NCBI GenBank assembly: GCA_965116115.1 | Contig: OZ220486.1 | Location: 2,144,808-2,208,807, forward strand | DNA: 64,000 nucleotides | Direction: 5' to 3' | From: Paracoccaceae bacterium | GTDB taxonomy: Bacteria > Pseudomonadota > Alphaproteobacteria > Rhodobacterales > Rhodobacteraceae | Shown: positions 18,714 through 40,830 of the stretch, one piece after another | Layout: each line of letters begins with the position of its first letter | Numbering within the stretch: the first letter of the stretch is position 1 | Notes under the pieces: generated by a model | Databases searched by the model: none | What the model was told of the DNA's origin: nothing | The model's input: only the letters and a program-made list of their open reading frames with translations | Made by a program: the position numbers and the translations under genes

Positions 18714-19120
18714 GTGCTTACGACATTTTCAAAACGAACCGTCGATGCACTCAAGCCCGTCAGCAAGCCTTGGATCGCGTGGGACGACGAGGACCACCAG
18801 CTTCCGAGTGCGCATCCACCCCTCTAAAACCAAAGCCTCCATCGTCAACTACCGCGCCGGCGACGGCAGTAGGAAAGCACCCGACAAGCGCGTCTTGATT
18901 GACCACCACGGACAGCTTCCCCCGGCCATGCGCGACGGAAGGCGCGGGAACTGCTCGGTAAGGTTGCAAGCGGGGATAACCCCGCGCCGAAGCGCAGGCC
19001 ATGCCGACTTTCAGGTCGCCTTCGAGGACTACATGGCGGCCAATCCCCATCGCTCCGTCTGCACCGACGAACTGTATCGCTGCGAGGCGAACCGCTATCT
19101 GGCCGACTGGCTGCCCCCCT
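18714..19120 (+). pseudogene. Tyrosine-integrase N-terminal (DUF4102-type) fragment, frameshifted and truncated
   Basis: Translation from the GTG at 18714 gives VLTTFSKRTVDALKPVSKPWIAWDDE. A shifted frame (ORF 18682..19122) continues FRVRIHPSKTKASIVNYRAGDG...HHGQLPPAM. The reading frame ends where an ISAs1 terminal repeat begins. No catalytic domain is present. Confidence 0.55.
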
Positions 19121-19150
19121 AGGGCTATCGCTTTTGAATTTTTCTGCTTT
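19121..19150 (+). repeat. Solo ISAs1 left terminal repeat (30 nt identical to 29216..29245)
   Basis: agggctatcgcttttgaatttttctgcttt is identical at both loci. The sequence diverges after nt 30. Confidence 0.8.
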
Positions 19151-22909: not shown

Positions 22910-23145
22910 CTCAAAATACTAAAAATGATAAGCAAAAAACTTTTCAGGCAGGCACTATTTCGGCGGTTTGCAGGAACATTTTGGTCGAGATCGGCAGTTG
23001 GACGACGTTGCTGAACTGCCTCATCCCTGCCCGCTTTGTCCCTCGGCAACAAAAACAACCTTGAGCGGCCGCTTGACCGCCGTTCATACACTTATGTAAG
23101 AAACCGCTTATCGAATTTTGCCTTTTGAAGAGATGTAACTCCGCG

Positions 23146-26139
23146 ATGACGGCTCCGAAGATTTTTGATTCCTGCCACCCGCGCCCCGACGTTCTGGATG
23201 GCACTTTGTCAGAGGCCGATTTCGCGGCCGACTTGGCGCAAGTGGTTTCCGGTAAGGGACCGGCCGAATATACGAATCCGGCACGGTTTTTTGCCAACAC
23301 CTACCCGACAAGAGGGTTAAAAGACCTTTTGAAGAATGTCTGCGCCCGGTTGAACGGCGCCGGCAGTGAAGCCGCGTCAATTTTCCGTCTCGACACATCC
23401 TATGGCGGCGGAAAATCGCACGGTCTGATTGCGCTCTGCCATGCCGCTCGCCGTGGCTCCGAGTTGCAGGAACTTTCCCGTTTCGTCGATCCCGAAATGA
23501 TTCCCCGGGACCGTGTGCGCATTGCCGCCTTTGACGGCGAGAACGCAGACCCGGCTAACGGCCGTCGTATGGGCGCAGGTCATCTCGCCTATACGCCATG
23601 GGGTGAGATCGCTTGGTCGCTGGCCGGCGCCGAAGGTTATGAGCGGGTCCGCCTGAGCGATATGAAACGAGTCGCTCCAGGCGCCGAGACGCTGCGCGAG
23701 CTGTTTGGCGGCGAACCGACGCTGATCCTTTTAGATGAACTTTCTGTCTACCTGCGCAAGGCGGCCGCTCTCGGCCAGGCTCGCGAACAGCTGACCGCTT
23801 TCTTGACATCTCTGTTCAGGGCCGTGGAGGGTGAGCCAAACGCAGCTCTCGTCTTCACTCTGGCGATCGGCAAGGACGGGCGGGCAGGTGACGCTTATCG
23901 TGAAGAAAACGAGTTCATCTTCGACATCATGGCGGAGGCAGAGAGCGTGTCGGCGCGTAAGGCGACGTTGTTGAATCCCACCGAAGAAGACGAGACGATT
24001 CAAGTGCTTCGCCGCCGCCTGTTCGAATCCATTAACGACGCGGCCGCAGCCGCCGCGGCAGAGGCTTACCTGGCGCAGTGGAGGGCTCATTCTCAGGCCT
24101 TGCCGGAAAAAGTCGCACGGGCTGAGGCCGGCGCGGAGTTCCGTTCGAGTTACCCCCTTCATCCCGAGGTGCTTGACGTCCTGAAGGCCAAGACGGCGAC
24201 GCTCGGCAATTTCCAGCGAGTTCGGGGAATGCTGAGGCTGCTGGCCCGCACCGTGGCCCATTTATGGAAGCAGCGGCCTGCTGACGCGACAGCCATCCAC
24301 CTGCACCACATTGATCCCGGCCATGAACCCATACGCCAAGAGATTGTGACGCGCCTCGGCCAGTCTCAGTTCGCGCCTGCGATTTCCAATGACGTGTCCG
24401 GAGGGTCAGCGGACAAAGCAGCGCTCGCTGAGGAAATTGATAACGGGCATTACGGGCGAATGCCGCCATACGCTTCCTATGTGGCCCGCACCATCTTCAT
24501 GCACACGCTGGCATTCAACGATCCTCTGAAAGGGGTATCAGCGGAACGGCTGCGTTACTCGGTTCTTTGCCCGGCAACGGACATCAGCTTCATTGATGAT
24601 GCGCAGAAGAAATTCATCGCGGATTCCGCCTATCTGGACGACCGTCCCGGGGCGACGATGCGTTTTGCGGCCGAGGCCAACCTTCAAAAAATGATACGCA
24701 ATACGCAAGATGGCATCGACGCCGGGGAGACGCGGGCGGAACTGAACGACCGGATCCGCACCATATTCAACGGCAGAACGCTGTGTGCGGTGCCATTTCC
24801 CGGCGGTCCGTTCGATGTAGCTGACGATGTCGCGGACGGGCGTCCGAAGCTGGTCATTCTCGGTTACGAGGCTGTGACAGTGGGCGAATCGGAAGATTCC
24901 GTTCCGGAGCTGATCCGGCGCATCTACAAGAGGAAGGGATCGGACAGCTCTGCGCTGCGCATGCTTCGCAACAATCTTGTCTTTGTGGCCGCCGATGAGG
25001 CGCGCAAGGAAAACATGCGCCGCAATGCCCGCCGCCGGCTGGCGCTGCGCGAGTTGAAGAAGCCGGAACGCTTGGTCGAATTAGCGCAGCACCAACAGGA
25101 AAAAGTCCGTGAGGAGGAAGCGCGCTCAGAGCAGGAACTCGCGCTTGCCGTTCAGCAATGCTACCGGCATGTATACTATCCGTCGCGTAACAGCAGCTCC
25201 GGCGGCGTAGATCTGGCGCATACAGCCATCGATATGCCCTCGGCCTCCGAAAGACCGGGCACGGGGCAGCAACAGGTCGTGCAGGCTTTACGGCGTCTGA
25301 ACAAGCTTCGCCTTTCAGAGGATAAACCGGATTCTCCGACTTATGTGCGCGACCGGACGCCTCTCAAAAAGGGACCAATGACGACGCTGTCGTTGCGCGA
25401 TGAATTCCGTCGTGACCCTGCGTTGACAATACTTGTAGGCGACGGCATCTTTGTTCGCGGCGTGAAGCAAGGCATCGAGCAGGGCGAGTACGTGTACCGC
25501 CGTGGAGAACTGCTTTGCGGGCAAGGCGATCCGGAGGTCGAGATCGAAATCGATGAGCAGTCAACGGTCCTGACAACAGCCTATGCGAAAAATAAGGGAA
25601 TTTGGCCACGACCACCGTTACCGCCACGTCCCAAGAAAAAACCTGAAGACAAAAATGGGGGTAACGACAAACCCCCGGGCCCAGACGGCCCTGAACCGGA
25701 TTCGTTTTATGCCGAGGGGCCTCTCCCAGAAGCGCTCGTGTGTATTTGGGACCAAGCCCGTGCGAAAAAAACCGAGTCCATCGCCGTAATGACCGTTCGC
25801 ATGTTCGAGGCCGGCGACGCCTTCCGGCTTCTCGGTGCTGTCAATGCAGTCCAAGGAGCGAAGCCTATTGTCACGCTGGAAGGCGGTTACGAGACCCAAG
25901 ACAACGGTACTCTCGAATTGGATTTCCGGGGGCCGGTTTCCGACGCGCAGCCGCTCCGGGAATTCTTGGAGCCGCAGTTACGGGCCGCCGTTTCGCAGAA
26001 TCTTAAAGCGGGATTTGAGTTGACCTACGAGAACGGTTTGCCGATGAAAGGCGACGCTGCGGAAAAACTGACCGAACGGCTCACCCGGTTCGCGCGCGGT
26101 GCGGCATTTGTTACGGCCATAGCGAAGGCGAGGACGTAA
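23146..26139 (+). CDS. DUF499-family ATPase (BrxC/PglY-like)
   Basis: About 997 aa from the ATG at 23146. N-terminus is KIFDSCHPRPDVLDGTLSEADFAADLAQV. P-loop is RLDTSYGGGKSHGLIAL and Walker B is PTLILLDELSVYL. The overall layout is typical of DUF499 proteins. Confidence 0.8.
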   Translation: MTAPKIFDSCHPRPDVLDGTLSEADFAADLAQVVSGKGPAEYTNPARFFANTYPTRGLKDLLKNVCARLNGAGSEAASIFRLDTSYGGGKSHGLIALCHAARRGSELQELSRFVDPEMIPRDRVRIAAFDGENADPANGRRMGAGHLAYTPWGEIAWSLAGAEGYERVRLSDMKRVAPGAETLRELFGGEPTLILLDELSVYLRKAAALGQAREQLTAFLTSLFRAVEGEPNAALVFTLAIGKDGRAGDAYREENEFIFDIMAEAESVSARKATLLNPTEEDETIQVLRRRLFESINDAAAAAAAEAYLAQWRAHSQALPEKVARAEAGAEFRSSYPLHPEVLDVLKAKTATLGNFQRVRGMLRLLARTVAHLWKQRPADATAIHLHHIDPGHEPIRQEIVTRLGQSQFAPAISNDVSGGSADKAALAEEIDNGHYGRMPPYASYVARTIFMHTLAFNDPLKGVSAERLRYSVLCPATDISFIDDAQKKFIADSAYLDDRPGATMRFAAEANLQKMIRNTQDGIDAGETRAELNDRIRTIFNGRTLCAVPFPGGPFDVADDVADGRPKLVILGYEAVTVGESEDSVPELIRRIYKRKGSDSSALRMLRNNLVFVAADEARKENMRRNARRRLALRELKKPERLVELAQHQQEKVREEEARSEQELALAVQQCYRHVYYPSRNSSSGGVDLAHTAIDMPSASERPGTGQQQVVQALRRLNKLRLSEDKPDSPTYVRDRTPLKKGPMTTLSLRDEFRRDPALTILVGDGIFVRGVKQGIEQGEYVYRRGELLCGQGDPEVEIEIDEQSTVLTTAYAKNKGIWPRPPLPPRPKKKPEDKNGGNDKPPGPDGPEPDSFYAEGPLPEALVCIWDQARAKKTESIAVMTVRMFEAGDAFRLLGAVNAVQGAKPIVTLEGGYETQDNGTLELDFRGPVSDAQPLREFLEPQLRAAVSQNLKAGFELTYENGLPMKGDAAEKLTERLTRFARGAAFVTAIAKART

Positions 26140-26664
26140 ATGGCGCGGCTGGATCGGGTGTCGGATGCGGAGACGCCCGCGCTTTCACCGCGCTACGAAT
26201 TGCGGGTGCGGCGTCATGGGCCGGCAGACTCCTCCTATGAGGTTTGGCAGCTGCCGTCAGCTGCCTCGCCGCATTTGTCCTGTGCGCAGCGTGTCGCCGG
26301 GCTGCGGGGCCGCAATCTCGACTTTGTCGAGCACCGGGTGCTGAGAAGGCTGTCACAGGCCGGCATCCGACTGGGACAGCATAAGGATGCGACGAAGCGC
26401 GGTTATATGCTTAGCGAAGACGCGGCACTCATACTGGGCCTGCTTTTCCGAGCTCTGGCGCCGATGCGCAGCCGTGCCAACATGCGGGCCGTAACGGAAG
26501 GTATCGAGGCGATGGGCCGCGAAGAGGCGGCTTACTGGCTGGGCATGGCCATGCACCGCAGGAACCCCCGGAGGGTTTTAACGGCTCTCAGGTGCCTTTT
26601 GACGGAGCCGAAGCGGCGGCACCAATGCCGCAGAACAAGTTCAGAGAAAAAACCTAATGGATAA
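26140..26664 (+). CDS. Small conserved-partner-like protein (possibly the DUF3780-type protein that accompanies DUF499/DUF1156 genes)
   Basis: 174 aa. The start abuts the DUF499 stop (TAAATG) and the stop overlaps the next start (TAATG). The family assignment is from memory of the gene neighbourhood only. Confidence 0.55.
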   Translation: MARLDRVSDAETPALSPRYELRVRRHGPADSSYEVWQLPSAASPHLSCAQRVAGLRGRNLDFVEHRVLRRLSQAGIRLGQHKDATKRGYMLSEDAALILGLLFRALAPMRSRANMRAVTEGIEAMGREEAAYWLGMAMHRRNPRRVLTALRCLLTEPKRRHQCRRTSSEKKPNG

Positions 26665-27184
26665 AGAGACGCTTGGTCTATCCAATAATGACGAAGAACC
26701 GGAAGGTCTGGATCAAGACAGCGTGTCGTGGGGAGACTATCCGCTTGATGACCTCTTGATCAGATACGAGAGCCGGACAGTCCATGACGTTATCCGACGC
26801 ATCGACCAGTCCAACTATGTCATGGATCCGGACTTCCAGCGAGACTTTATCTGGCCGGAAGATAAACAAAGCAAACTCATTGAGTCAGTGATCATGCGTA
26901 TACCTTTGCCTGTTTTCTATATGGCAGAGGACGATCGAGGACGCATGGTTGTGGTGGACGGTTTGCAGCGCCTTTCGACTTTCCATCGCTTTGTCAAGGA
27001 TGAGTTGAGATTAGAACTTCCCGCTAGGGAGGCGATCAATGGCAGGAGATTCAAGGATCTGCCGCCCAAGATCCAGAATCGTGTCGAGGACTGTAATCTC
27101 ATTTTTTATGTCATCGATTCGAAGGTGCCGGAACGTGCCCGGCTGGATATATTCGAAAGGGTCAACGGCGGCGTTCCTTTGACC
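26657..27184 (+). pseudogene. DUF262 (ParB-like/GmrSD N-terminal) domain protein, 3'-truncated by IS256 copy A
   Basis: DPDFQRDFIWPEDKQSKLIESVIMRIPLPVFY...VVVDGLQRLSTF (a DGQQR-type motif). The native reading frame ends at the IS terminus at 27185. No C-terminal nuclease domain is left. Confidence 0.75.
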
Positions 27185-28619
27185 GGGAATGTCCCGCTTG
27201 ATGTTGAAACCCGCAGGAGCGATGCTGCCTGTCGGCTATCTACGCGGCGTCCTTGAGCCGGTCAAGCCGATCCTTTCGACGATGTTCGATGAGAGCCTGC
27301 TTGAGAACGGGCAGCTGCCTGTAAGCCTTGATGCGGCGGAAACCCTTCTCGGCCGCTGTCATGCCGGCGGCGGGCTGTCGCAGAGCCATCCCGGCGTTCC
27401 TCCAGCGCTTCACGTTGCGGCAGACCTGCCGGACCGTGCTGTTCATCGATTCGATGATGTTCGTGCTCGCCAGCGACCGCCGCAGCTCTGACGGCAGGCC
27501 GAGCCGGGAGACGGTCAGGACCTCGTCCAAGCCCTCAAGTATCGACCGGGAGACGTCCGGAGCCTCCTGTTCGAACCGCTGAGCCAGGCTGCGCATCAGC
27601 CGCTCGGCCTTGTCGGCGTCATCAAGTTCCCAGGCTTGCCTGAGCGTCCGCCGCACGCCGGCGTGATGTTCCGCGGCGAGACGGTCGATGATGTTGCGGC
27701 CCTTGTGAACCTGACAGCGCTGAATAGGGATGTCCGCGCCGAAAGTGCGCCGGATCGCCTTGCTGAGCGCCCTGGCTCCGTCGACGATGAACAGATAACA
27801 GCCCTTCGGATCAAGCCCGCGCCGGATCAGATCATCAAGCAGAGCCTGCACGGTCGCGGCGTTCTCCGTCGCGCCTTCGATGACGACTGGGGGGCGCTTA
27901 CGCCCCGACGCGTCAATGCCGACGGCCCCGATCATCAGCAGGCGGTCGCTCATATGCAGCCCGTCGATCTGAACCGCGACGAGATCAAGCTCCGACAGAT
28001 CGGAAGTCATCCATTCATCAAACTTCGCCTGCGTCAACGCCTTGAACCGGCGGGACACGGCCGATTTCGACAGCCCGCAGCCCGCCCCGCAGGGAACCCC
28101 GGCCTCCGGAATCCTCACCGCCCGGCGGAACTTGCGGGTCGCTGCGCTCGCGGTCATCAAGTTCACCGCCCATCGGTCGAGATAACCGTCCGCGGAGATT
28201 TCTTACTGGCTCGGCAGAGACATCTCCTTGCCCGCAGCCTTGCAGCGGAGACGCGGACGGTCGATGCCGACCTTGCCGCCGTGAAACCCGACCTGGGAAC
28301 GCGTATGTCCCCAGCGGTGCCCCGGCTTGTCGGGAGAATGACTGTGACGTTTCCCGGCCAGCCGTTCGGCGTCCTCGTCCATCATCTGCCGCAGATACGC
28401 GATGCCCGTCGTCAGGCAGAATTTCTCGAAACTCTCGGTCACGTCTTCGTACGCCTCTTCGACGAGCGCGTTGATGTTCGGAGCGCTGGCGGAGGCGCCG
28501 GGGAATGTGCTAACGGTTTTCATGGTGTTGCTTCCTTTTCTTCAAAAAATCCCCGAGCTGATTCTCGGGGGAGAGGCAACACCGCCCATATCAAATTCAA
28601 CATCAAGTGGGACATCCCC
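27185..28619 (-). mobile_element. IS256-family element copy A (1435 bp), transposase interrupted by an in-frame TAA, no target-site duplication
   Basis: Termini are gggaatgtcccgcttgatgttgaa and (reverse complement) ggggatgtcccacttgatgttgaa. ORFs 28203..28523 and 27240..28166 together equal the intact 427-aa transposase of copy C, except for SQ* versus SWE at codons 105-107. Flanks are cctttgacc and gggagatta. Confidence 0.9.
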
Positions 28620-28704
28620 GGGAGATTAGCCGTGTTAGCGTTGTGCTTGTGGGGAATTTAATCCAGAGATTTTTACCCCCGCGTGGTTTGCATTAAACGG
28701 TCTT

Positions 28705-29215
28705 TTGCCGAAGAGTGCCGCCGAGACAGCCGAAATTAGGATTGCGCATCATCAGGCATCCAGTTTCTGCACTGAATGGCTCCAGCTTGATGCCGCCCCC
28801 GACCGTTTCCAGGCCGCGACTCAATCGGCCCCGAATATCCGGGTCCGTGACTTTGTGTTACGTGCCTTCAAGGAGCAACTCGTCCACACTCCCATCAAGG
28901 CGCTCGGAATCAATCGTGATGCGCATTTTCGTGCACCAAACCAGAGTGCCCGGAATCATGTTGGCAGAGTGTTGGCACCGGTGGAACCATGACTTCCTTG
29001 CACTGAGGAACTCGGCTTGGGACTGGACAGCGAAAACGGCGGGATGCGGTCCTTGACTATGGTGGATACTCAGCCCGAAGGCCGGCCACCGGGAGGACAG
29101 ATCAGTGTTACGGTGGAACCGTCTCAACGAATCGGCAACGGAATCACAGGGATATATGTGGGTACCAACGATCACTACGCAGTTGACTTAACTGATGCCA
29201 AAGGTAGGGCTATCG
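28705..29215 (+). pseudogene. Orphan gene, frameshifted and then split by ISAs1 (last codons at 30448..30482)
   Basis: ORFs 28705..28992 and 29017..29271 are in different frames. Reading continues across the ISAs1 insertion (..HYAVDLTDAKG / SAHNCWGF*). No family was recognised. Confidence 0.35.
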
Positions 29216-30447
29216 CTTTTGAATTTTTCTGCTTTTCAGTCAGCTTTTTTGTTCCATCAATGCCTCAATAATACAAACAGAGGCAAGCAGATGACTGATT
29301 TATCTCATATTTTCAATGGCATCACCGATCCCCGGCGCAGCAACGCCATCCGGCATGACCTTCACGAAATACTCATGATCGCTTTTCTGACTGTCATGTC
29401 GGGAGGAGAAACATGCACCGATACAGTCGAATTCGCTGAAATCAAGAAGAAATTCCTGCTTGAGTTCATGGATCTGAAGCACGGCACGCCGAGTCACGAC
29501 GCCTTTTCCGACCTGTTCAACAGTCTGAATCCGGTCGAGCTCGGCGTCGTTCTCTCGCGCCTTGCCGAGCTGGGCGGAGGGTCTGGCAGCAGCAGACGGG
29601 GACGGCGTCATCGCCGTCGACGGCAAGACTCTGCGCCGGTCATTCGCCGACGCTTCGAAGCGGCATCCTCTGCATCTCGTTCACGCTTTCGCCTCTGACA
29701 CGCGGCCAGCTCTCGCGCAGACCGCGGTCGACGGGAAGTCGAACGAGATCACCGCGATCCCTGCGCTTCTGAAGTTCCTCGACATCCGGGGGCGGACGGC
29801 AGCGGCTGACGCGATGCATGCGCAGCGGACGATATCGGAGGCCGTGAAGGACGGCGGGGGCGGGTATATTCTCGCCTTGAAGGGCAATCAGGGCAATCTG
29901 CACAAGGATGTGAAACGGTATATGGAGAACCCCGGTAATATTGAAAACATTCAGTTTTCCGAGACGCATAAGGAGAAGGGGCACAGCCGGATCGAAACCC
30001 GGCGGGCCGCGGTCTGCCATGATGTCGGCTGGCTGGAAAAGCTCCTACAGTCGGGTCTCGCCGCTGTCGGATCCGTCTCTTCGACCCGGGAAATCAAGGG
30101 AAAGCGCAGTGCCGAAACCCGGTATTTCATTATGAGTGAGAAGCGGGGTCCGGAGCGTTTTCTCAAGGGCGTGCGGGAATGCCTGGTCGGTGAAAACAGT
30201 CTGCACTGGGTACTCGATGTCACGATGAATGAAGATCATCTGCGAAACCGGACCGGACCCGGGCCGGAAAACCTGGCCGTGATGCGGCGGCTGTCTCTCA
30301 ACCTGGCGCGGGTCACGGAGGACAAGCAGGCTGAGTCAATGCGCGGCAAACTCAAGAAAGCCGGATGGGATCACCGCTATGCGCTGAAGCTCATCAGCTC
30401 CGCTGGAATGCTGCCGGAAAACTGGGAATCTCAAAAGCGATAGCCCT
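29216..30447 (+). mobile_element. Complete ISAs1-family element with 10-bp target duplication; transposase has one frameshift
   Basis: Terminal repeats are agggctatcg...cgatagccct. atgccaaagg is present on both flanks (29205-14 and 30448-57). The transposase starts at the ATG at 29291 (MTDLSHIFNGITDPRRSNAIRHDLHEIL) and continues in ORF 29562..30443 (VIAVDGKTLRRSF...ILALKGNQGNL). Confidence 0.85.
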
Positions 30448-30571
30448 ATGCCAAAGGGAGCGCACAATTGCTGGGGTTTCTAGAAAGCAATTTTAATGAT
30501 TCAATGCAGCGCAGCGATGGCATAATTGATCACATCATGTCATTAGCAGTGGATAAAGGAGGATAAGTTTT

Positions 30572-31195
30572 ATGAAACAATCAGTCAACTCCACTGCGAA
30601 CCGAAGGTTCAACCGGGTGCCGGGTGGAAATGGAAGTTCCCCTAGGAAGTTTCAGCATGGACAATCGGCATTCCGGGTGCCAGAAGTGAAGGCCGCAGTG
30701 GATCGGGCGTTGGCATCCGCCAAACATGCGAAACATATGACGACGCATGATTTGCGGGGCGGAAACTGTTTGTCTCCTGAGTCGCTTCTTGATCATACTC
30801 ATAGCCGTGATCGGGCCGTTCCAGCCGTTGATTTTCCTCCATTGGCAAAATCCGAGCCCCGCATGAGCACGCTCTATGCGTTGCAGGAATGGGAAGGATA
30901 TGTTGTTCAAATCGAAGCTGACGAATTCGTAGCACGCCTGGTCAATTTGACAGCAGGACATTCCCATGAGAGCCAAGAAGCGACTATCCCTCTAGTTGAA
31001 ATTTCCGAGTATGATATCTCCTGTATGACTGTCGGTAGTATTTTCCGCTGGGTGATCGGTTACGAACGTTCTCCCGAAGGAACGCAGAAGCGGGTATCGC
31101 AAATTGTTTTCCGGGATTTGCCCAGAATGACCGAAAGTGACTTTTCGGAAGGCAAAGCGTGGGCGCGAAAGATCGTACAAGCCATCAGCCCATGA
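30572..31195 (+). CDS. Orphan 207-aa protein (basic, probably disordered N-terminal half; compact C-terminal half)
   Basis: A strong SD (aaggagg) lies 8 nt upstream of the ATG at 30572. The stop overlaps the next start (ATGA). No motif was recognised. GC is about 50-55% by eye. Confidence 0.6.
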   Translation: MKQSVNSTANRRFNRVPGGNGSSPRKFQHGQSAFRVPEVKAAVDRALASAKHAKHMTTHDLRGGNCLSPESLLDHTHSRDRAVPAVDFPPLAKSEPRMSTLYALQEWEGYVVQIEADEFVARLVNLTAGHSHESQEATIPLVEISEYDISCMTVGSIFRWVIGYERSPEGTQKRVSQIVFRDLPRMTESDFSEGKAWARKIVQAISP

Positions 31196-32277
31196 AAAAT
31201 GCAAGAAAACCGCCGGAGGATCAGGAGTTCGAACTGACGCTTCTTGGTCCCGGTTACGGCGAGAGTATCGTAATGCACGTCGGTGGCGGTGAATGGGTTG
31301 TCGTCGATTCTTTTTTGGACTCTGCTGGAAGGCCCGCAGCGGTGCGATATCTGGAGGAAATCAGCGTCAATCCAGCGGAGTCCGTTGTTCTGATCGTGGC
31401 GACGCATTGGCATGATGACCACATACGCGGGATCGCGCGTCTAGTTACACTGTGTTCAGCAGCTGGATTTTGTTGCGCTGGCGCACTATTTTGCGAGGAG
31501 TTTCTGACACTGGCAGGGGCACTGGAACGCCGACATTTTTCTGCGTCCGGTTCCGGGATGCGCGAGATGCACGATGTGTTTTCTGTGTTTGAGGTGACAG
31601 GGAAGAGGCCAGCGCACGCGATGGCAAACCGTGTCGTGCTTCGAACCGACGCATGCACCGTTTCGTCTCTGTCTTCCAGCGACGCGGTTTTCCAGAGCTT
31701 CTTAAAATCCGTCGAACGCCTAATTCCCGGACGAGGTGCGAACAAGACGCGGATTCCAACCCTTTTTCCCAATCAGGCTGCGGTTGCGCTGCGGGTAAAT
31801 GCCCAACCTGTCTCCTTGTTACTCGGCGCCGACTTGGAGAGAAGCGGCTGGGTAGCAATTTTTGAGGACAAAACACGTCCAGCTGGCCGGGCATCAGTTT
31901 TCAAGGTTCCTCATCATGGCTCGAAGGATGCCGACGAACCGGGAATATGGAAATTTCTGTTGGAACCGGACTCATATGTTGTTCTGACTTCTTGGCGTCG
32001 AGGCAGCCGTGTATTGCCAACGCCACAGGGCACCAGGCGTATTTCAGCCGCTACGGCAAACGCCTATGTGTCGGCTGCGAATACGCAGCCGGTCCGGCGG
32101 GGCCTCAGGCATGCGGAAAGATCAGTGGCGAAGACTTTGCGGGAATCAGGAGTCCAACTCCGTTCGCCTGAATCTCAAGATAGTTCAGTTCGGCTGCGGC
32201 GCCGCTTCGTTTCTGCACGCCCGTGGTCGCTCGAACTACGCGGGGATGCGCGCCACTTAAAGAACTTTGCAGCGTAG
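31192..32277 (+). CDS. Metallo-beta-lactamase-fold hydrolase, ComEC/Rec2-like subtype
   Basis: H-x-H-x-D-H is present as ATHWHDDHIRG. The late motif is FKVPHHGSKDA, as in ComEC-type MBL domains. The ATG at 31192 is coupled to the upstream ORF. The gene ends 7 nt before the methyltransferase ATG. Confidence 0.75.
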   Translation: MKNARKPPEDQEFELTLLGPGYGESIVMHVGGGEWVVVDSFLDSAGRPAAVRYLEEISVNPAESVVLIVATHWHDDHIRGIARLVTLCSAAGFCCAGALFCEEFLTLAGALERRHFSASGSGMREMHDVFSVFEVTGKRPAHAMANRVVLRTDACTVSSLSSSDAVFQSFLKSVERLIPGRGANKTRIPTLFPNQAAVALRVNAQPVSLLLGADLERSGWVAIFEDKTRPAGRASVFKVPHHGSKDADEPGIWKFLLEPDSYVVLTSWRRGSRVLPTPQGTRRISAATANAYVSAANTQPVRRGLRHAERSVAKTLRESGVQLRSPESQDSSVRLRRRFVSARPWSLELRGDARHLKNFAA

Positions 32278-32284
32278 CGCGCCC

Positions 32285-35209
32285 ATGCCGGAAGACCCCC
32301 GTCTGATCGAACGCTGGCTGCCGATTGCGGCACTTGGCGAAGAGAGCACCCGCGAGCGGCGGTCCATGACAGCTTTGCCGCCGACGTACTATCTCCATGT
32401 CTGGTGGGCGCGGCGGCCGTTGGTGGCGTCGCGCGCCGCCGTTCTGGCCTCGCTGCTGCCCGCGGACGCCGACCGAGAGATGTTCATGCATGCGCTGGGG
32501 ATCCATGGGGATCCGGTGGCGGCAAAACGGCGAATCTCGATTGCCACTCGAAAAGGTGAGCGCCTGGGGGCTGCCGCGTACGGATACTCACGTGCCTTTG
32601 GCTATACGCCTAATTTCGAGGACAAGAAATGGGTGTTTTCTTTATTACTTGGAGAAGCAACAGTTCTTGACCCGACAGCAGGTGGCGGCAGCATACCCTT
32701 TGAGGCAGTTCGCCTAGGCTTGAAGGCCATGGCCAACGACCTTAACCCCGTGGCGTCATTAATTGAGCGTGCCACCATCGACTGGCCTAGCAAACATGGG
32801 AGCGAAATCAAGATAGTCTTTGAAGAGCTGGGTATCAAACTTACGGCCACTGTACGAGAGCGGCTGGCCGGAATTTTTCCGTTGGAACCTGAAGAGAATA
32901 CTCGATCTGACGGCTATCTCTGGGCCCGCACGGTCACTTGTCCGTATTGCGCCGGCCTTGTGCCGCTTTCGCCGAACTGGCGTCTGGCACCGGGCGGGAC
33001 AGGGGTGCGATTGCAGCCGGACCTGTCTGCGGGGCCGGGTTCCGAAGGCCGGGAATGTTCGTTTGAGATCGTTGAGAGCGAACGGGATCAGTCGCCGGGC
33101 ACGGTTTTGAAAGGCGCCGGTTCCTGCCCGTATCCGGACTGCGGGCGCGTCATCGACGGCAAGGAGATCAAGCGTCAGGCTCAGGCCGGCCGGATGGGCG
33201 AGCAGCTTTACGCCGTGGTGTACAAGCGGCGCGTGCCGGGCCGGATCCTCAAGTCGGGCAAGCGGGGCAAGGACAAATGGGACCGCGGTTACCGGGCCCC
33301 GCGGCCGGAGGATGACAACAGCGCGGACATCGCCGTCCGGCTGGCCGGCAAACTTCCCGAGTGGGAAGCGTTCGACATGGCGCCGGGGGAGAGGTTTCCG
33401 GAAGTCAGTAATGACGATCGCCCGATACAGTATGGAATGCCGCTCTGGCGCGATCTGTTTTCGCCGCGTCAGCTTCTGTGCCACGGAACCGGCGTCGAGG
33501 TGTTCCGGGAGATGCTGGAGGCCGACCGCCGGGCCGGCAGGCTGACCGATGTCCGCCGGGCGGCCTACGGGTATCTGGCTTTGATGCTTGATAAGCTTTT
33601 GAACTACAATTCCCGCATGACTCGTTGGATATCGCAGCGAGGAGTCATCGCCGGGACATTTGATCGCCATGATTTTGCGTTGAAATGGTCCTACGCGGAA
33701 ATGGCCCCGCTCGTCGCCGGGGTCGGCTACGACTGGGCTGTCGGCCAAACCGCGAAATGCATCAAAGAACTGACGGCGCTTGTCCGTCCGGAAACCGGTA
33801 ACGAGGGCGGCCTGTTTAAAGCCGAGTCTGCCCCGCCCCCGGTCACCGTCTCCTGCAAATCGGGAGACAGCCTTGATCACATAGAGGACGGCAGCATTGA
33901 CGCAGTGGTCATGGATCCGCCCTATTACGACAACGTGATGTATGCTGAGCTTTCGGACTTCTTCTATGTCTGGCTGAAGCGCACCGCCGGGCATGTCTTT
34001 CCCGAACTGTTCCGGCGCGTTTTGACCGACAAGGAGAATGAGGCGGTCGCGAACCCGGCGCGGTTCCGGGGCGGGAAGAACGCGAAGGAAATGGCCGGCC
34101 GCGAATACCGGGAACGCATGGCGTCGATTTTCGCGGAATGCCGCAGGGTATTGAAGCCTGACGGCATCATGACGCTGATGTTCACGCATAAGGCGAAGGG
34201 GGCGTGGGACGCGCTCACCGCGGGCCTGATGGAAGCGGGGTTCGCCGTCACCGCGTCTTGGCCGGTCAACACGGAAGCTGAAGGCAGCCTTCATATCCGG
34301 AATAAGGCGGCAGCCAACAGCACGGTTTTTCTGGTCTGCCGCCCGCGGGCCGCCGCCGGCCCGGAACAGGGTCGCTATTGGGAGGATGTGGAGCCGCGGG
34401 TGGCGCAGGCGGTCCGTGAACGGATCGGGTCGTTTCAGGAAGCCGGGATCGCCGGGGTCGATCTTTATCTGGCCTGTTTCGGCCCGGCGCTGGAAGAATT
34501 TTCCCGCAGTTGGCCGCTCAAACGCGGAACGCCGCGGCAAATGTCCAAAGAACGGCGAAGGAGCAGCAGCGGAAATCGTCCCGAGGATGATCCGGATCCA
34601 TATGCGGTGACGCCGGAGGATGCGCTTGATGCCGCGCGCCGGGAGGTGACGCGCTGGCGGATGGAAAAGCTGACGCGCCTGAAGGTTGACGCCGGTCTTG
34701 ATGCTCCGACCAACTTCTTCGTGCTCGCTTGGGACGCTTTCCGGGCGCCGGTGTTCTCGTACGACGAGGCGTTGCGGCTGGCGCGCGCCGCGGGTGTTGA
34801 TCTTGACCGCGACATCATGGACCGGCTGGCCGGAAAGAAGGGCAGCGACATCGTCATGTGGGACAGCGCCCGGCGCGCGGCGGCGGCGAAGCTCGGCCCC
34901 GCCGACGGTTCACGCGGCATGATCGACGCGCTCCATCACGCCGCCCATACGGCGCGGCGGCGCTCACTGGCCGCTGCCCGGGAGTCGCTGGCCGACGCGA
35001 ATCTGGATCAGGACGCGGGTTTCATCGCGGCGCTGACGGCGGCCCTCGAGGTGCTGCCGGTTTCCAGGTCAATCACGGGCATCGAGCTTCAAGGCGACGC
35101 CGCCGCGTCGGGCGATGACTTCGAGGCGCTCAACAATCTGAGACTGCTGGCCTACAGCGACCGGGTCGCCGAGCCGGAGCAGCTCTCGTTCTGGCGGGAT
35201 GACGAGTAG
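32285..35209 (+). CDS. DUF1156-family DNA methyltransferase (COG1743-like, DPPY motif)
   Basis: N-terminal IERWLPIAALGEES...YYLHVWWARRPLVASRA is the DUF1156 signature. The catalytic motif IV is VVMDPPYYDNVMYAELSDFFYVWLKR. About 974 aa from the ATG at 32285. Confidence 0.85.
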   Translation: MPEDPRLIERWLPIAALGEESTRERRSMTALPPTYYLHVWWARRPLVASRAAVLASLLPADADREMFMHALGIHGDPVAAKRRISIATRKGERLGAAAYGYSRAFGYTPNFEDKKWVFSLLLGEATVLDPTAGGGSIPFEAVRLGLKAMANDLNPVASLIERATIDWPSKHGSEIKIVFEELGIKLTATVRERLAGIFPLEPEENTRSDGYLWARTVTCPYCAGLVPLSPNWRLAPGGTGVRLQPDLSAGPGSEGRECSFEIVESERDQSPGTVLKGAGSCPYPDCGRVIDGKEIKRQAQAGRMGEQLYAVVYKRRVPGRILKSGKRGKDKWDRGYRAPRPEDDNSADIAVRLAGKLPEWEAFDMAPGERFPEVSNDDRPIQYGMPLWRDLFSPRQLLCHGTGVEVFREMLEADRRAGRLTDVRRAAYGYLALMLDKLLNYNSRMTRWISQRGVIAGTFDRHDFALKWSYAEMAPLVAGVGYDWAVGQTAKCIKELTALVRPETGNEGGLFKAESAPPPVTVSCKSGDSLDHIEDGSIDAVVMDPPYYDNVMYAELSDFFYVWLKRTAGHVFPELFRRVLTDKENEAVANPARFRGGKNAKEMAGREYRERMASIFAECRRVLKPDGIMTLMFTHKAKGAWDALTAGLMEAGFAVTASWPVNTEAEGSLHIRNKAAANSTVFLVCRPRAAAGPEQGRYWEDVEPRVAQAVRERIGSFQEAGIAGVDLYLACFGPALEEFSRSWPLKRGTPRQMSKERRRSSSGNRPEDDPDPYAVTPEDALDAARREVTRWRMEKLTRLKVDAGLDAPTNFFVLAWDAFRAPVFSYDEALRLARAAGVDLDRDIMDRLAGKKGSDIVMWDSARRAAAAKLGPADGSRGMIDALHHAAHTARRRSLAAARESLADANLDQDAGFIAALTAALEVLPVSRSITGIELQGDAAASGDDFEALNNLRLLAYSDRVAEPEQLSFWRDDE

Positions 35210-35215
35210 CGCCGC

Positions 35216-38200
35216 ATGTTCCGTGACCGTCCATGGCGCCTCAAATACACGGTCGATGACGGTGATCTCGTTAAGCTTTTCCACATCCCTGCGCTTGAGG
35301 ACGCGGTCCGCTACGACCGGCTGACCGGCTATTTCAACGCTCAGGCGCTCGCGCTCGCGGCGCGCGGCATTGAGGGGCTGGTGCGCAATGATGGAAAGAT
35401 GCGGCTCGTGGCAGGATGCACGCTGGAGCCTGACGAGATCACAGCGATTGAACGAGGCGAGGCCCTCCGCGCCGTGGTGGAGCGGCGCCTTGCAGGCGAA
35501 CCGCTCACTCCGCCCGATCCGGCATCGGCCGGTGCGCTGGAACTTCTGGCGTGGATGGTCGCGCGCGGGTTTCTTGACGTGAAAGTCGCCGTGCCCCGAA
35601 ATGCCTCAGGCGAGCCGGATCCGGAGAGCGGAATTTTCCACGAAAAGTCCGGGATCGTCGAGGACCGGGCCGGCAACCGGCTTGCCTGGACCGGCAGCCT
35701 TAACGAGACCGGCGCTGGCTGGCGGAACAACTGGGAGAGCTTCAGCGTCTATACCAGCTGGGGAGCGGAGCCCGGACGGGTCGATGCGGAGGAGGCGAAC
35801 TTCGCCCGCCTCTGGGCCGGGAGGACGGAGCGCATGTTCGTTCTGGATGTGCCGGAGGCGGTGCGCCGCGACCTGATGCGTTTTATGCCTGAGACCGGCC
35901 TGCCGGCGCGTCTGGAGCGGCAGTCGACGGTTGCGGGCCGAAAACATTCCGCGCCGAAGCCGGAACACCGGCCGGACAACGGCGCGGGAATGCCGGCGTC
36001 GCTGCGCGGACGGGTATGGGCGTTTATCAGGGAAGCGCCGTCGCAGCCGGGCGGGGAGGGGATCGGCGAGGCCACCGCGCCGGTCGTGCCTTGGCCGCAT
36101 CAGGCAAGGGCGTTCGAGCGTTTGTACGGTAACTGGCCGCCCCGGCTCTTGATCGCGGACGAAGTCGGGCTGGGCAAGACCGTTCAGGCCGGACTGCTGT
36201 TACGCCAGGCTTGGCTCGCCCGCCGCGCCGAGCGGATTCTGATTCTCGCTCCGAAGGCCGTGCTCGGCCAGTGGCAGATCGAACTCCGGGAGAAGTTCAA
36301 TCTCAACTGGCCTGTCTACGACGGCGGAAAACTGATATGGTATCCTTCGCCGGCGCTGAAGGGGCGGCATGAACGCGTCGTCGGGCGCGGGGAGTGGCAT
36401 CGCGAGCCGGCTGTGATCGTGTCCAGTCAACTGATGCGCCGGCGCGATCGGGCGAAGGAACTCTTGGAAACGGCGGAGGCGTGGGACTTGGCAGTGCTTG
36501 ACGAGGCGCATCATGCCCGCCGCAAGGCCCCCGGAAGTCAGCAGGAAGGGGGACCGAACACGCTTCTCCGACTTATGCGGGGTCTTAAGGACCGCTCGAA
36601 AAGCCTGCTTCTTCTGACTGCGACGCCAATGCAGGTGCATCCGGTAGAGGTTTGGGACTTGCTTGATCTGCTCGGGTTGCCGCCCGAATGGAACGAACAG
36701 GCGTTTCTCACGTTCTTCGAAGATATCGGGAAGCGGAATCCTTCGAATGATGCCATGGAACGGATGGCGGCGCTGTTCCGCTCTGCCGAGCGTGAATTCA
36801 GCGAAATTGGAACGGAGGATGCGCAGCGTCTGACCCGCCTCTCGCGGCTTAAGGCGAACAAAGTGCTCCGCGCCCTGCGCGATTCCGCCAGCATTCCGCG
36901 CCGCCAACTGGAAACCGGCGAGCGTCAGGCGGCGGTGGCGATCATGCGGTCCGCCGCCCCGGTCCGCCGGCTGATCTCGCGAAACACCCGCGAGCTGCTG
37001 CGGCGTTACTTCCGTGAAGGGATGATTGAGACGCCGATCGCGGAACGCCGGGTTGAAGACCGCTTTCTGGAGATGACGGCCGGCGAACGTGCCGTTTACG
37101 AAGCGGTCGAGGATTACATCGCAGGCGCGTACAGACGGGCGAGCGGCCGGGAACGCACGGCGGTCGGTTTCGTCATGACGATCTACCGCCGTCGGCTGGC
37201 CAGCAGCTTCACGGCGTTGCGCGAAACCCTGCGCAAACGCCGCGATGCCGTCACCGGCGCCGTGCGCATGAACGCCTTCGGTCTCGCGGAGGATCTGCCG
37301 GACGATGAAGCGGCCGACGAAATGATTGACGCCGACAAGGCGGCTGACCTTGAACGCCGATCCCTCGACCGCGAGCATGAGGCGGAAATCGACCGGCTGC
37401 TCGGTGCGGCCGGGAACCTGCCGCCGGACAGCAAACTCGGCGGTCTCAAGGAGGTTCTGCGCGAACTGCGCCGTGCAGGACATGACCGGATGATGGTGTT
37501 TACCCAATACACCGATACCATGGATTTCCTTCGCGACGCGCTCGCGAAGGATGCTGAGTGGGCGCTGCTGTGTTTTTCCGGCCGGGGAGGAGAGGCGCTT
37601 GGGACAGACGGCACATGGCGCGGAATATGCCGGGACGATGCGAAACAGCGTTTCCGGGACGGGCAGGCGGATGTCCTGTTGTGCACCGATGCGGCGGCTG
37701 AGGGCTTGAATTTTCAGTTCTGCGGCGCTGTGGTCAATTACGACATGCCGTGGAACCCCATGCGGGTCGAACAGCGCATCGGGCGCATAGACCGGCTGGG
37801 TCAGAAGCACGAAACCATCCGTATTGTCAACCTGCACTATGAGGGGACAGTCGAGACAGACATCTACCGCGCGCTTCGCGACCGTATCGGCCTGTTTGAA
37901 AAAGTGGTGGGACGTCTGCAGCCGATCCTGGCCCGTTTGCCCGGCGCGATATCGCAGAGCGTGCTCTCGGGGCAGGGCCGGGAAGAGCGCGGGCGCGCCG
38001 GGCTTATCGCCGATATCGAACAAAAAGCGAATGAAGCCCGAGACAGCGCAGGATTTGATATCGATGGCGTGACCGAGGATGACTTGACTATGCCGACGCG
38101 CCCGGAGCCGACCGTAACGATGGAAGATCTGGATCGGATCATCGTATCAGACAGCTTGACAGCGCCCGGGGTCGATGTTCAGGCGATGAGACATCGCGAA

Positions 38201-38398
38201 TACGGACTGCTGGCGCCGGGCATGGACGCACAGTTACGGGTGACTACAGACCGGAAATATTTCGAGGAACACGCGGAGAGCATGGAATTTTGGTCGCCCG
38301 GCAATCCATTGTTCAGCAAATCGGAGCCTGCGGACAAAGCGGAACTGGACCCCGCGCACAAGACGCTGAAGGACATCCTTGATGATGCCGGGCGTTGA
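35216..38398 (+). CDS. PLD-nuclease-domain / SNF2-family helicase fusion
   Basis: An N-terminal HKD-like motif reads GIFHEKSGIVED...SLNET. SNF2 motifs are LIADEVGLGKTVQAG (I), LDEAHHARR (II), LLLTATPMQ (III) and PWNPMRVEQRIGRIDRLGQ (VI). The start is 7 nt after the methyltransferase stop. Confidence 0.85.
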   Translation: MFRDRPWRLKYTVDDGDLVKLFHIPALEDAVRYDRLTGYFNAQALALAARGIEGLVRNDGKMRLVAGCTLEPDEITAIERGEALRAVVERRLAGEPLTPPDPASAGALELLAWMVARGFLDVKVAVPRNASGEPDPESGIFHEKSGIVEDRAGNRLAWTGSLNETGAGWRNNWESFSVYTSWGAEPGRVDAEEANFARLWAGRTERMFVLDVPEAVRRDLMRFMPETGLPARLERQSTVAGRKHSAPKPEHRPDNGAGMPASLRGRVWAFIREAPSQPGGEGIGEATAPVVPWPHQARAFERLYGNWPPRLLIADEVGLGKTVQAGLLLRQAWLARRAERILILAPKAVLGQWQIELREKFNLNWPVYDGGKLIWYPSPALKGRHERVVGRGEWHREPAVIVSSQLMRRRDRAKELLETAEAWDLAVLDEAHHARRKAPGSQQEGGPNTLLRLMRGLKDRSKSLLLLTATPMQVHPVEVWDLLDLLGLPPEWNEQAFLTFFEDIGKRNPSNDAMERMAALFRSAEREFSEIGTEDAQRLTRLSRLKANKVLRALRDSASIPRRQLETGERQAAVAIMRSAAPVRRLISRNTRELLRRYFREGMIETPIAERRVEDRFLEMTAGERAVYEAVEDYIAGAYRRASGRERTAVGFVMTIYRRRLASSFTALRETLRKRRDAVTGAVRMNAFGLAEDLPDDEAADEMIDADKAADLERRSLDREHEAEIDRLLGAAGNLPPDSKLGGLKEVLRELRRAGHDRMMVFTQYTDTMDFLRDALAKDAEWALLCFSGRGGEALGTDGTWRGICRDDAKQRFRDGQADVLLCTDAAAEGLNFQFCGAVVNYDMPWNPMRVEQRIGRIDRLGQKHETIRIVNLHYEGTVETDIYRALRDRIGLFEKVVGRLQPILARLPGAISQSVLSGQGREERGRAGLIADIEQKANEARDSAGFDIDGVTEDDLTMPTRPEPTVTMEDLDRIIVSDSLTAPGVDVQAMRHREYGLLAPGMDAQLRVTTDRKYFEEHAESMEFWSPGNPLFSKSEPADKAELDPAHKTLKDILDDAGR

Positions 38399-39643: not shown

Positions 39644-39909
39644 GTCGAGCCCGCTGCCCGCCCGTGCGAACCGGGCCGCGGGTTTCAGGGATCGGCCGCC
39701 TCGCGTTTCGCCCGCCGGAGCCTGAGCGGGAGCGGCGTAACGCCGCCGTTCCGTGCGGTTTTTCAGTTGAAGCGGGACGGCCGGCAACAGGGCGCCGCCG
39801 TTGCTGATTGACGTGTCGTACGCGCCGTAGGTTCAGACTTTCCAATTTGTCTCCTGCGTCCTGAATGGATGCTGGGATCAAGATCCGTATTAACTCAGCG
39901 AGTAGGAAC

Positions 39910-40830
39910 ATGACGAAAATATGCGCAGGCTTGGATATCAGCAAGGAGATCATCGACGTGCATGCCGCTGGCGTCGACCGCCGGTTCAGAAACGACCGTT
40001 CGGGCTTCCGCGCGATAGACGAGTTTCTGAAAAAGCATGCGGTACAGCGGGTCATCATCGAAGCGACCGGACGGCTGCACCGGAAGATTCATCCTTCGCT
40101 GCATGGCAAGGGTTACGAAGTCTGCATCATCACCCCGCTCCAGGCACGGCGCTTCGCCGAAGAGACCGGCCAGCTGGTTAAGGCCGACAAGGCGGATGCC
40201 AAGATGCTCGCGGCCTTTGCGACGGCCTTCACCGATCTTCCTGCGACGCAGCTGAAATCCGGGTTTCTCAGCCGTCTCAATGATTTAACAGCCGCTCACC
40301 GGCACTTGGTTGAAACCGCTGAAGAAATACGTCAGTGCCGCGATGATATCCAGCACGCGTCAGCTAAGGAAGGCTTAGATGAAATAATCAAAATTGCTGA
40401 GCAGCAAAAGGAAGTTCTCGAAAATGAAATTGAGGAGCATATCAAGAGCGATCCCGATTAGACCAGCGCTTATCTCATCCTGGTGTCCGTTTCCGGCCGC
40501 CGCTCTGCTTTGCCGGTGCCTGAACTTGAGTGGATCGACAGGCGGCGGTGCTCGCCGGGACTGCCCCGTTCGACCGCGACAGCGGCGCGAAGAAAGGTGC
40601 GCCGTGCGTTCAGAACGGACGTTCCGCTCGAGGCATGCGCTCTGCATGGCGGCTGCAGCGGCTGTGCGCTTCAATGAAGGTATGTCCGAATTCTACGGTT
40701 GGCTTATCGAGCGGGGGAAATTTCATAAGGTCGCTCTTATCGCCGTCATGCGCAAGCCGGCAGTCCTGGTGAGCACGCTGCTGCGCGGCCGGCGCACTTG
40801 GAAGAAACGGAATCCGTCCGCGTCAAGAAC
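39910..40830 (+). pseudogene. IS110-family transposase, multiple frameshifts in the C-terminal half
   Basis: The N-terminus MTKICAGLDISKEIIDVHAAG...VIIEATGRLHRK...KADKADAKMLAAFA is intact to 40461. C-terminal motifs are scattered over other frames (AGTAPFDRDSGAKKG; FYGWLIERGKFHKVALIAVMRKPAVL). Confidence 0.7.

Follow-up and report, generated by a model that had tools for sequence, protein, structure and literature searches.

Organization of the Locus

The 64,000-nucleotide stretch analyzed here, hereafter the window, belongs to a Paracoccaceae bacterium (GenBank assembly GCA_965116115.1, contig OZ220486.1, positions 2,144,808 to 2,208,807) and carries, within an Hma-type operon, the remains of a three-gene cassette. 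This cassette comprises a disrupted first gene (g1), a gene for a protein of 207 amino acids (aa) (g2), and a gene for a 361-aa ComEC-like protein of the metallo-beta-lactamase (MBL) fold (g3). The coordinates of these genes, of the insertion sequences (ISs) among them, and of the surrounding operon are collected in Table 1.

The original prediction, made from the letters of this DNA, had described g2 and the MBL gene as a two-gene unit, and both open reading frames (ORFs) are real. The Shine-Dalgarno sequence AAGGAGG lies 9 nt upstream of g2, and the TGA stop of g2 overlaps the ATG of the MBL gene at 31192 (ATGA), confirming the proposed translational coupling. The MBL protein carries HWHDDH at residues 72-77 and KVPHHGS at residues 238-244, and its TAG stop (32275-32277) ends 7 nt before the ATG of the DUF1156 methyltransferase gene at 32285; no terminator-like site was found between these two genes. 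A drop in GC content of about 10 points, estimated earlier by eye, is roughly right: g2 and the MBL gene have values of 0.514 and 0.560, versus 0.633, 0.637, and 0.592 for the operon genes HmaB, HmaA, and HmaC, respectively.

Two elements of the earlier description have to be abandoned. The 207-aa protein is not an orphan, as at least 942 homologous clusters at 90% identity exist, and the unit is not a pair, since the remains of a preceding third gene are present in two pieces (28622-29204 and 30458-30566). The sequence directly upstream of g2 is the 3' end of pseudogene g1 rather than a promoter region; the Shine-Dalgarno sequence of g2 sits within this 3' end, just downstream of an ISAs1 element.

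Conservation and Distribution of the Cassette

Searches with the MBL profile confirmed at least 311 loci in GTDB species genomes, 80 of which were taken for synteny analysis. These 80 loci span more than 12 phyla or classes, including Alpha- and Gammaproteobacteria, Acidobacteriota, Latescibacterota, Binatia, Gemmatimonadota, Rhodothermales, Spirochaetia, Dehalococcoidia, Entotheonella, Opitutales, and Thermodesulfobacteriota. In essentially all of them, hidden Markov model (HMM) matches place g1 (~233 aa), g2 (~205 aa), and the MBL gene (~360 aa) in a fixed order with tight spacing. The two exceptions, in which g1 escaped the search, are L059, where the MBL match is truncated (HMM positions 2-285), and L064, which starts at a contig end. 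Synteny in other genomes, which the prediction had proposed to examine, is therefore strict, but it takes the form g1-g2-MBL.

Remote triads, in which g1 retains 28-37% identity, occur in an ICE-like (integrative and conjugative element) region of Novosphingobium sp. ST904, on a plasmid of Adhaeribacter swui (Bacteroidota), on a conjugative plasmid of Pantoea agglomerans, and on the Logan contig L167. Their products appear in NCBI records as "hypothetical", "hypothetical", and "MBL fold metallo-hydrolase"; the accessions are WP_054436230, WP_132470054, and WP_165913353 for Novosphingobium, WP_185269975/74/73 for Adhaeribacter, and WP_311976879/80/81 for Pantoea. The cassette has a patchy distribution, is horizontally mobile, and is associated with mobile elements. 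A description of this combination was found in none of the models of PADLOC (2023) or NCBIfam (June 2026) and nowhere in the literature searched, which agrees with the earlier statement that no such system had been described.

Nearly all of the genome loci (L007-L086) derive from metagenome-assembled genomes, among them Latescibacterota, Binatia, Entotheonella, and Dehalococcoidia, together with bins designated COS, IRC, RHO, and Plut. From the record names alone, we take these lineages to be typical of sponge and coral holobionts. By contrast, 80 Hma loci sampled from JGI metagenomes include no triad, and the triads embedded in Hma operons may be restricted to certain habitats.

Features of the Encoded Proteins

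The MBL family is large (at least 1593 clusters), and many of its members lie on the same contigs as g2 homologs. When compared with PDB structures, the family profile matched the MBL domains of ComEC (9ic4, E 2.7e-10; 30bt, E 7e-9). Among diverged members, the best NCBIfam matches were ComEC_Rec2 (9e-9) and Avs1a (6e-7), followed by GloB (4e-5) and RNase Z (5e-5). Both comparisons are best for ComEC, so the assignment to a ComEC-like group, rather than to a glyoxalase II or RNase Z type, stands. The alignment with ComEC is limited to the MBL portion of that protein, corresponding to residues 529-739 of the 801-aa 30bt and to positions 621-676 of the PRK11539 profile. In comparison with ComEC, the MBL protein possesses ~40 extra residues between motifs II and IV, in a segment that carries a conserved GSGxRE loop, and ~47 at the C-terminus.

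Residues D39, H72-x-H74-x-D76-H77, D214, and H241-H242-G-S are invariant across triads whose MBL proteins share 29-33% identity. With these metal-binding motifs retained, the protein is expected to be an active metal-dependent hydrolase, and its resemblance to ComEC suggests that DNA would be the substrate. The only defense models matched by the MBL protein are the LmuA-associated MBL and RTasMBL models of PADLOC (mostly N-terminal, E 1e-6 to 1e-9) and Avs1a, all of them partial and below curated cut-offs; the Avs1a model reached 16 bits against a cut-off of 420. The GloB model reached 15 bits against a cut-off of 200 and is not above threshold. Close members of the family also show a conserved cysteine cluster (C88, C94, C95, another near 100-101, and C155, with the motif FCCA) that is absent from the remote triads and may represent a lineage-specific structural metal or redox site.

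The g2 family (~205 aa) combines a hypervariable N-terminal region of ~95 residues, predicted to be disordered, with a C-terminal half modeled by AF2 at pLDDT 85-96 (residues ~96-207; topology b1-b3/a/b4-b5/a). This half contains the conserved core LQEWEG...GSIFRWVIGYE...FRDLPR. Foldseek returned weak matches of the OB/S1 type (E >= 0.02), including the anticodon-binding domain of LysRS, the exosome S1 domain, PriB, and Stn1; the model thus points, with weak to moderate confidence, to an OB-like barrel. The invariant residues Q105, W107, G109, G155, G163, and P184 give no suggestion of catalysis. An adaptor role, as previously put forward for this protein, may be considered.

Intact g1 proteins (~233 aa) are encoded directly upstream of g2 in relatives, and a search of 1.84 billion representatives with the g1 profile recovered 2383 clusters (50% identity). 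In the predicted model (pLDDT 85.6, pTM 0.82), an alpha+beta sheet built from two repeats is followed by a long helix at the C-terminus. Foldseek against PDB proposed AdoMetDC and START/Bet v 1-like folds at a best TM-score of 0.32, which is weak, while BFVD yielded one good unnamed match (E 7e-11, TM 0.54-0.62) together with TBP-like proteins. A TBP-like, pseudo-dimeric alpha+beta fold is suggested with weak to moderate confidence. Neither g1 nor g2, in close or remote members, matched any family or protease in Pfam, NCBIfam, or PADLOC, and their profiles found nothing significant in PDB.

In 12 diverse g1 sequences, residues D82, N103, H107, S173, and N188 are invariant. A Ser-His-Asp protease formed by D82, H107, and S173 was considered and is unlikely, because the Pantoea homolog has Q in place of H107; a caspase was rejected, as an invariant Cys is absent. 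In one 438-aa protein of the representative library (P0361), g1 makes up residues 1-230 and is joined through a linker to the OB-like domain of g2. This protein may be a genuine Rosetta-stone fusion, or it may have arisen artificially by read-through or misassembly.

The Host Operon and Its Insertion Hotspot

The operon that houses the cassette combines a DUF499 AAA+ ATPase, a DUF3780-like DUF7680 protein, a DUF1156 methyltransferase, and an HKD/PLD-SNF2 helicase, the set that defines Hma or Type-2 BREX-related (BR) anti-phage operons. The latter name was given in a 2026 survey that regards the HKD/PLD-helicase as the primary effector (PMC12839542). In the window, the genes for DUF7680 and DUF1156 are 5.6 kb apart, the interval being occupied by a truncated GmrSD_N/NsnA-like gene, two ISs (one of the IS256 family and one ISAs1), g2, and the MBL gene. 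The truncated gene overlaps the DUF7680 stop, and in PADLOC it aligns with positions 38-191 of the NsnA profile, which is 385 positions long; full-length homologs (368 aa) occupy the same position in L001 and L015.

Table 1. Features of the Hma operon and of the embedded cassette, with positions in the window.
Feature	Coordinates	Strand	Evidence
HmaC, DUF499 AAA+ ATPase of Hma operon	23125..26139	+	Pfam DUF499 4e-36; PADLOC HmaC 3.7e-100; NCBIfam DUF499_antiphage
DUF7680 small protein, left hotspot border	26140..26664	+	Pfam DUF7680 1.6e-44
GmrSD_N / NsnA-like (DUF262) gene, 5' half, truncated by IS256-family element	26657..27182	+	Pfam GmrSD_N 4.6e-21
IS256-family IS (Mutator-type transposase), 1439 bp	27183..28621	-	Transposase_mut 1.3e-26; 51-nt terminal inverted repeats 27183-27233, 28571-28621
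g1 pseudogene, 5' part, codons ~6-200	28622..29204	+	tblastn; hmmsearch pieces; reconstruction and alignment
ISAs1-family IS, 1244 bp, inside g1	29205..30448	+	transpos_ISAs1 (NCBIfam) 1.3e-73; Pfam DDE_Tnp_1_assoc, DDE_Tnp_1
g1 pseudogene, 3' remnant, codons ~201-235, TAA 30564-30566	30458..30566	+	tblastn
g2, 207 aa	30572..31195	+	At least 942 homolog clusters; no Pfam, NCBIfam, or PADLOC family
g3, ComEC-like metallo-beta-lactamase-fold hydrolase, predicted DNase	31192..32277	+	Pfam Lactamase_B; metal-binding motifs all intact
HmaB, DUF1156 N6-adenine methyltransferase, right hotspot border	32285..35209	+	Pfam DUF1156; PADLOC HmaB 8.5e-75
HmaA, PLD(HKD)-SNF2 helicase	35216..38398	+	Pfam SNF2-rel_dom, Helicase_C, PLDc_2; NCBIfam phospholipD_antiphage 4.6e-105

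The association with DUF499 and DUF1156 genes, raised in the original prediction as something to be examined, is strong. In about 26 of the 80 genome loci, the triad lies exactly between DUF7680 and DUF1156, at the same junction every time and usually as a seamless seven-gene array. Among these embedded triads, the divergence of the MBL protein correlates with that of HmaB (r = 0.73) and of HmaC (r = 0.82) as closely as the two Hma proteins do with each other (r = 0.80; Mantel p = 0.001), indicating that the triad, once lodged, is inherited together with the operon. Hma operons are known as insertion hotspots for defense genes (PMC11232893).

For sampling in the reverse direction, 80 JGI metagenome loci were anchored on DUF7680 proteins with 60-74% identity to that of the window. 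None of these 80 Hma loci contains g1, g2, or the MBL gene. In about 45 of them, DUF1156 directly follows DUF7680 (gap of 9-135 nt), and about a dozen hold other insertions of 0.8-4.6 kb at the junction. This alternative cargo includes Septu PtuA (1e-113) with PtuB (6e-59), Menshen NsnB and NsnC, and a SIR2-like gene.

Such findings bear directly on the explanation that the cassette supplies the Hma/Type-2 BR system with an auxiliary or backup nuclease of its own, dependent on the DUF499, DUF1156, and helicase proteins. This explanation would account for the identical position of the triad in highly similar Hma operons across phyla, for the correlated divergence, and for the 7-nt gap to DUF1156 without a terminator; embedded auxiliary nucleases are, moreover, recurrent in BREX and BR loci (PMC12839542). 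It is nevertheless unlikely. About two thirds of the 80 triads are not part of an Hma operon, in many cases being flanked by housekeeping genes or carried by plasmids and ICEs, the reverse sample contains no triad at all, and unrelated autonomous systems use the same junction. Furthermore, the Hma-embedded copies are spread over the whole MBL tree, and this scatter also rules out a single acquisition by Hma. A core role in Hma is rejected by the reverse sampling. Taken together, the absence from that sample, the scatter in the tree, the loci outside Hma, and the other junction cargo establish the triad as optional, autonomous cargo of the DUF7680/DUF1156 hotspot and not as a core component. 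Accordingly, the suggestion of an extra effector acquired by a restriction-modification (R-M)-like system is not supported, as the cassette is not a dedicated Hma part. The alternative suggestion of an independent cassette survives insofar as the module is autonomous and linked to defense; the cassette, on the other hand, has three genes instead of two and is broken in this genome.

Several observations concern the hotspot itself. The junction cargo in the DUF7680-anchored loci was located at L087 10492-12548, L121 1645-3948, L155 1575-3772, L089 8974-12072, and L104 10765-16104. It includes a SIR2/pAgo-associated-like gene followed by a gene for a 336-aa protein without a PADLOC match, as well as two large proteins (1032 aa and 1779 aa) that have neither an annotation nor a strong PADLOC match. 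Upstream of the triad in L001 (5957-8554), the hotspot holds genes for TIR_2-like (388 aa), LD_cluster2 (LOG-like, 283 aa), and ThsB-type TIR (200 aa) proteins, which may form a Thoeris-like variant stacked with the triad. On the minus strand of the window, positions 15947-18386 and 4526-9924 contain possible further defense-like gene pairs of the same island. One pair consists of an AAA ATPase gene (412 aa, weak NACHT match) overlapping an unannotated 402-aa gene, and the other of a gene for an unannotated 1383-aa protein adjoining one for an AAA_14/DUF4143 ATPase.

Disruption of g1 by Insertion Sequences

The first gene of the cassette was recognized in the window by tblastn. Queries with the g1 proteins of L001 and L002 matched 28622-29211 over residues ~6-202 at 67-70% identity (E 1e-84 to 1e-86), and g1 homologs matched 30450-30563 over residues 198-235 (E 1e-9 to 3e-12). 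Four lesions affect the gene. The start codon and the first ~5 codons are replaced by the end of the IS256-family element, one nucleotide is deleted near 28655 (AATTT where AATTTT is expected), a TGA at 28990-28992 replaces the conserved Trp of LAPVEPW, and the ISAs1 element is inserted with a target duplication of 9-10 bp. After in silico removal of the ISAs1 element and one copy of the duplication, the g1 frame runs on to its TAA. These lesions aside, the remnant shows almost no decay, so its inactivation looks recent; the cassette is probably inactive in this genome through the recent destruction of g1.

The ISAs1 element is bounded by inverted repeats of 31 nt (29205-29235 and 30418-30448) and flanked by the direct repeat (A)TGCCAAAGG at 29195-29204 and 30448-30457. 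The duplication may be counted as 9 or 10 bp because base 30448 is common to the repeat and the inverted-repeat arm. The transposase of this element is itself split into two overlapping ORFs, 29195-29698 (167 aa) and 29562-30443 (293 aa), which cover positions 1-62 and 64-313 of the NCBIfam model. End fragments of ISAs1 are also found elsewhere in the window, at 2345-2479 and 19120-19159.

On its left side, the IS256-family copy that cuts g1 abuts the middle of the GmrSD_N gene. In L001, the closest relative, the rest of that gene is retained and is followed by the TIR, LD_cluster2, and ThsB-TIR genes and then by g1. An IS-associated deletion between the GmrSD_N gene and g1 is therefore likely, the IS256-family element being its likely driver. 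Two more copies of this element with 97-99% identity (50661-52094 and 55935-57371, both on the minus strand) and a fragment (50227-50429) are present in the window, and the family is evidently active in this genome. In addition, a fragment of an IS110-family (DEDD_Tnp_IS110) transposase at 39865-40461, downstream of the Hma operon, is a further sign of an island rich in mobile elements.

In the window, g2 and the MBL gene carry no frame-breaking lesion. At columns conserved in at least 90% of sequences, g2 deviates once (family median 1) and the MBL protein seven times (family median 3). Substitutions at such columns are thus not clearly more frequent than in the rest of the family, and the two genes are not demonstrably decaying.

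Proposed Function and Alternative Explanations

We consider, with moderate confidence, that g1-g2-MBL is an undescribed mobile three-gene cassette for defense against phages or other mobile genetic elements, that its effector would be a regulated DNase, and that the copy in the window has been inactivated. In the mechanism that we propose, g1 and g2 would act as a complex that senses an infection cue, which might be a nucleic acid recognized by the OB-like domain of g2 and the TBP-like sheet of g1. This complex would then license the latent MBL DNase, either by binding and release or by processing, and the licensed enzyme would degrade invading DNA, host DNA, or both. The P0361 fusion, the strict co-occurrence of the genes, and their translational coupling are the grounds for proposing a complex. 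The defense reading draws on the synteny of the triad, its location in the hotspot, the ComEC-like affinity of an MBL protein with invariant catalytic motifs, the antiphage DNase activity proven for other ComEC-like MBL proteins, and the lack of phage-borne g1 copies. By analogy, the triad would parallel the protease-gated MBL pro-nucleases HamM, Avs1a, and CanC, with partners that are either not proteases or proteases that are not recognized as such.

Several points weigh against this proposal. Outside Hma operons, triads behind type III R-M genes or adjoining E1-E2-JAB-patatin or GASH/DO-GTPase genes speak for defense, but most often triads lie between housekeeping or unannotated genes, and clear defense genes make up only about a dozen of the 109 immediate neighbors. 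The structural matches of g1 and g2 are weak to moderate, and neither protein has a recognizable sensor, protease, or ATPase domain, which makes the licensing mechanism a guess. Finally, g2 and the MBL gene are intact despite the four lesions in g1, as if the pair could still work on its own.

An improbable alternative is that the triad serves as a toxin-antitoxin (TA)-like addiction or stabilization module, with the MBL protein as toxin, g2 and/or g1 as antidote, and no primary role in phage defense. Its carriage by plasmids of Adhaeribacter and Pantoea and by an ICE-like region of Novosphingobium, its proximity to recombinases and transposases, the ATGA coupling of g2 to the MBL gene, and the long disordered region of g2, a feature common in labile antitoxins, all agree with such a role. 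However, a fixed three-gene layout and a nuclease of ~360 aa are atypical of type II TA systems, and the repeated embedding in defense operons, at a hotspot shared with known defense systems, speaks for defense. Moreover, loss of a g1 antidote should select for inactivation of the MBL protein, yet all of its invariant residues are kept. TA function and abortive-infection defense are not mutually exclusive.

The intactness of g2 and the MBL gene could also mean that they form a still-functional two-gene unit in this genome, expressed without g1 by read-through or from a promoter carried on an IS. The four lesions are all confined to g1, which accounts for ~29% of the cassette length, and the deviations of the other two genes at conserved columns are near normal. 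Nonetheless, this is very unlikely, given that a g1 match was missed in only two of the 80 loci, that the other genes may simply not have had time to decay after so recent an inactivation, and that no sigma-70-like promoter was found on the plus strand upstream of g2.

That the MBL protein is a housekeeping hydrolase of the glyoxalase II, RNase Z, or beta-lactamase type, or that the pair is a phage-derived anti-defense cassette, is extremely improbable: weak, motif-level N-terminal matches to beta-lactamase, GloB, and RNase Z models and an Anti-Pycsar_Apyc1 match (E 0.018) in one of 28 diverged triad proteins scanned are outweighed by longer and better matches to ComEC and Avs1a, by the scores of all these weak matches, which fall far below curated cut-offs, by the patchy and horizontally mobile distribution, and by the absence of g1 homologs from 50,697 phage genome records, which leaves the earlier anti-defense suggestion unsupported and led us to reject a phage origin.

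A bolder version of the defense reading, which we offer as possible though rather doubtful, holds that the triad is a widespread anti-phage or anti-plasmid system in which a ComEC-like DNase is licensed by a TBP-like and OB-fold complex instead of a classical protease. It would then constitute a fourth, non-canonical branch of MBL effectors with a preference for the Hma/BREX-related hotspot in sponge and coral symbionts, and it might operate by nucleic-acid sensing or through g1 as a new kind of processing enzyme. New candidate defense cassettes are common. If true, this one would add a large and taxonomically broad MBL branch with two novel partners and a test of non-proteolytic MBL control. 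The Hma/BREX-related hotspot gains a new type of cargo. Tractable, culturable representatives are available: the plasmid pAR24_C of Pantoea agglomerans, the Adhaeribacter swui plasmid, and Novosphingobium sp. ST904. As to annotation, names could be given to two large families of "hypothetical proteins", and the locus in the window is to be recorded as a decayed cassette and not as a two-gene system.

Comparison with Known Systems

The closest parallels are the ComEC-like MBL proteins found in Hachiman, AVAST, Lamassu, and DRT loci and in Canu, which have been proven experimentally to be antiphage DNases. They are produced as zymogens whose active site is blocked by two inserted loops, and these loops are removed on infection by a co-evolving trypsin-, caspase-, or subtilisin-like protease. 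The modules include trypsin-MBL pairs in HamMAB, Avs1/2/4, Lamassu, and DRT, the Canu system (CanABC), and subtilisin-MBL pairs; three studies of 2025 established such MBL nucleases as portable death effectors of bacterial immunity, in every case licensed by a partner protease (PMC12799240; PMC12642450; bioRxiv 10.1101/2025.09.03.673762). Like them, the triad encodes a stand-alone, cytoplasmic ComEC-like MBL protein of ~350-370 aa with HxHxDH, D, and HHGS motifs; it is portable, resides inside or beside unrelated defense systems, and co-diversifies with partner genes. As in Canu, there are three genes and the nuclease comes last. Unlike these modules, the triad has no recognizable trypsin, caspase, or subtilisin partner, its g1 and g2 having predicted TBP-like and OB-like folds, and its MBL protein matches their models only partially and far below curated cut-offs, with no full-length Avs1a match. 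In the absence of a recognizable protease, the triad is not assigned to the protease-gated family.

By profile, the nearest relative of solved structure is the C-terminal MBL domain of ComEC/Rec2, with which the MBL protein has the KVPHHGS-type motif in common. That domain is a metal-dependent DNase according to Silale et al. 2021, as cited in PMC12799240. In contrast to ComEC/Rec2, the 361-aa protein of the window is soluble, lacks membrane-channel and OB domains, and is encoded in a gene context unrelated to competence. It also differs from housekeeping MBL proteins such as glyoxalase II and RNase Z, to whose models it has no above-threshold match, and its distribution is patchy and tied to mobile elements. 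The triad is set apart from type II TA systems by having three fixed genes in essentially all loci instead of a two-gene operon.

With regard to location, the cassette resembles other embedded cargo of Hma and BREX-related operons, as it occupies an internal operon junction that holds defense genes elsewhere. The cargo described for Hma operons comprises Septu, PARIS, Ppl, and GmrSD-like genes (PMC11232893). An MBL nuclease triad is not listed among the published embedded effectors (PMC11232893; PMC12839542), and the term "MBL" has no mention in PMC12839542. The triad is best described as a variant of the defense-associated MBL-nuclease modules with two novel partners.

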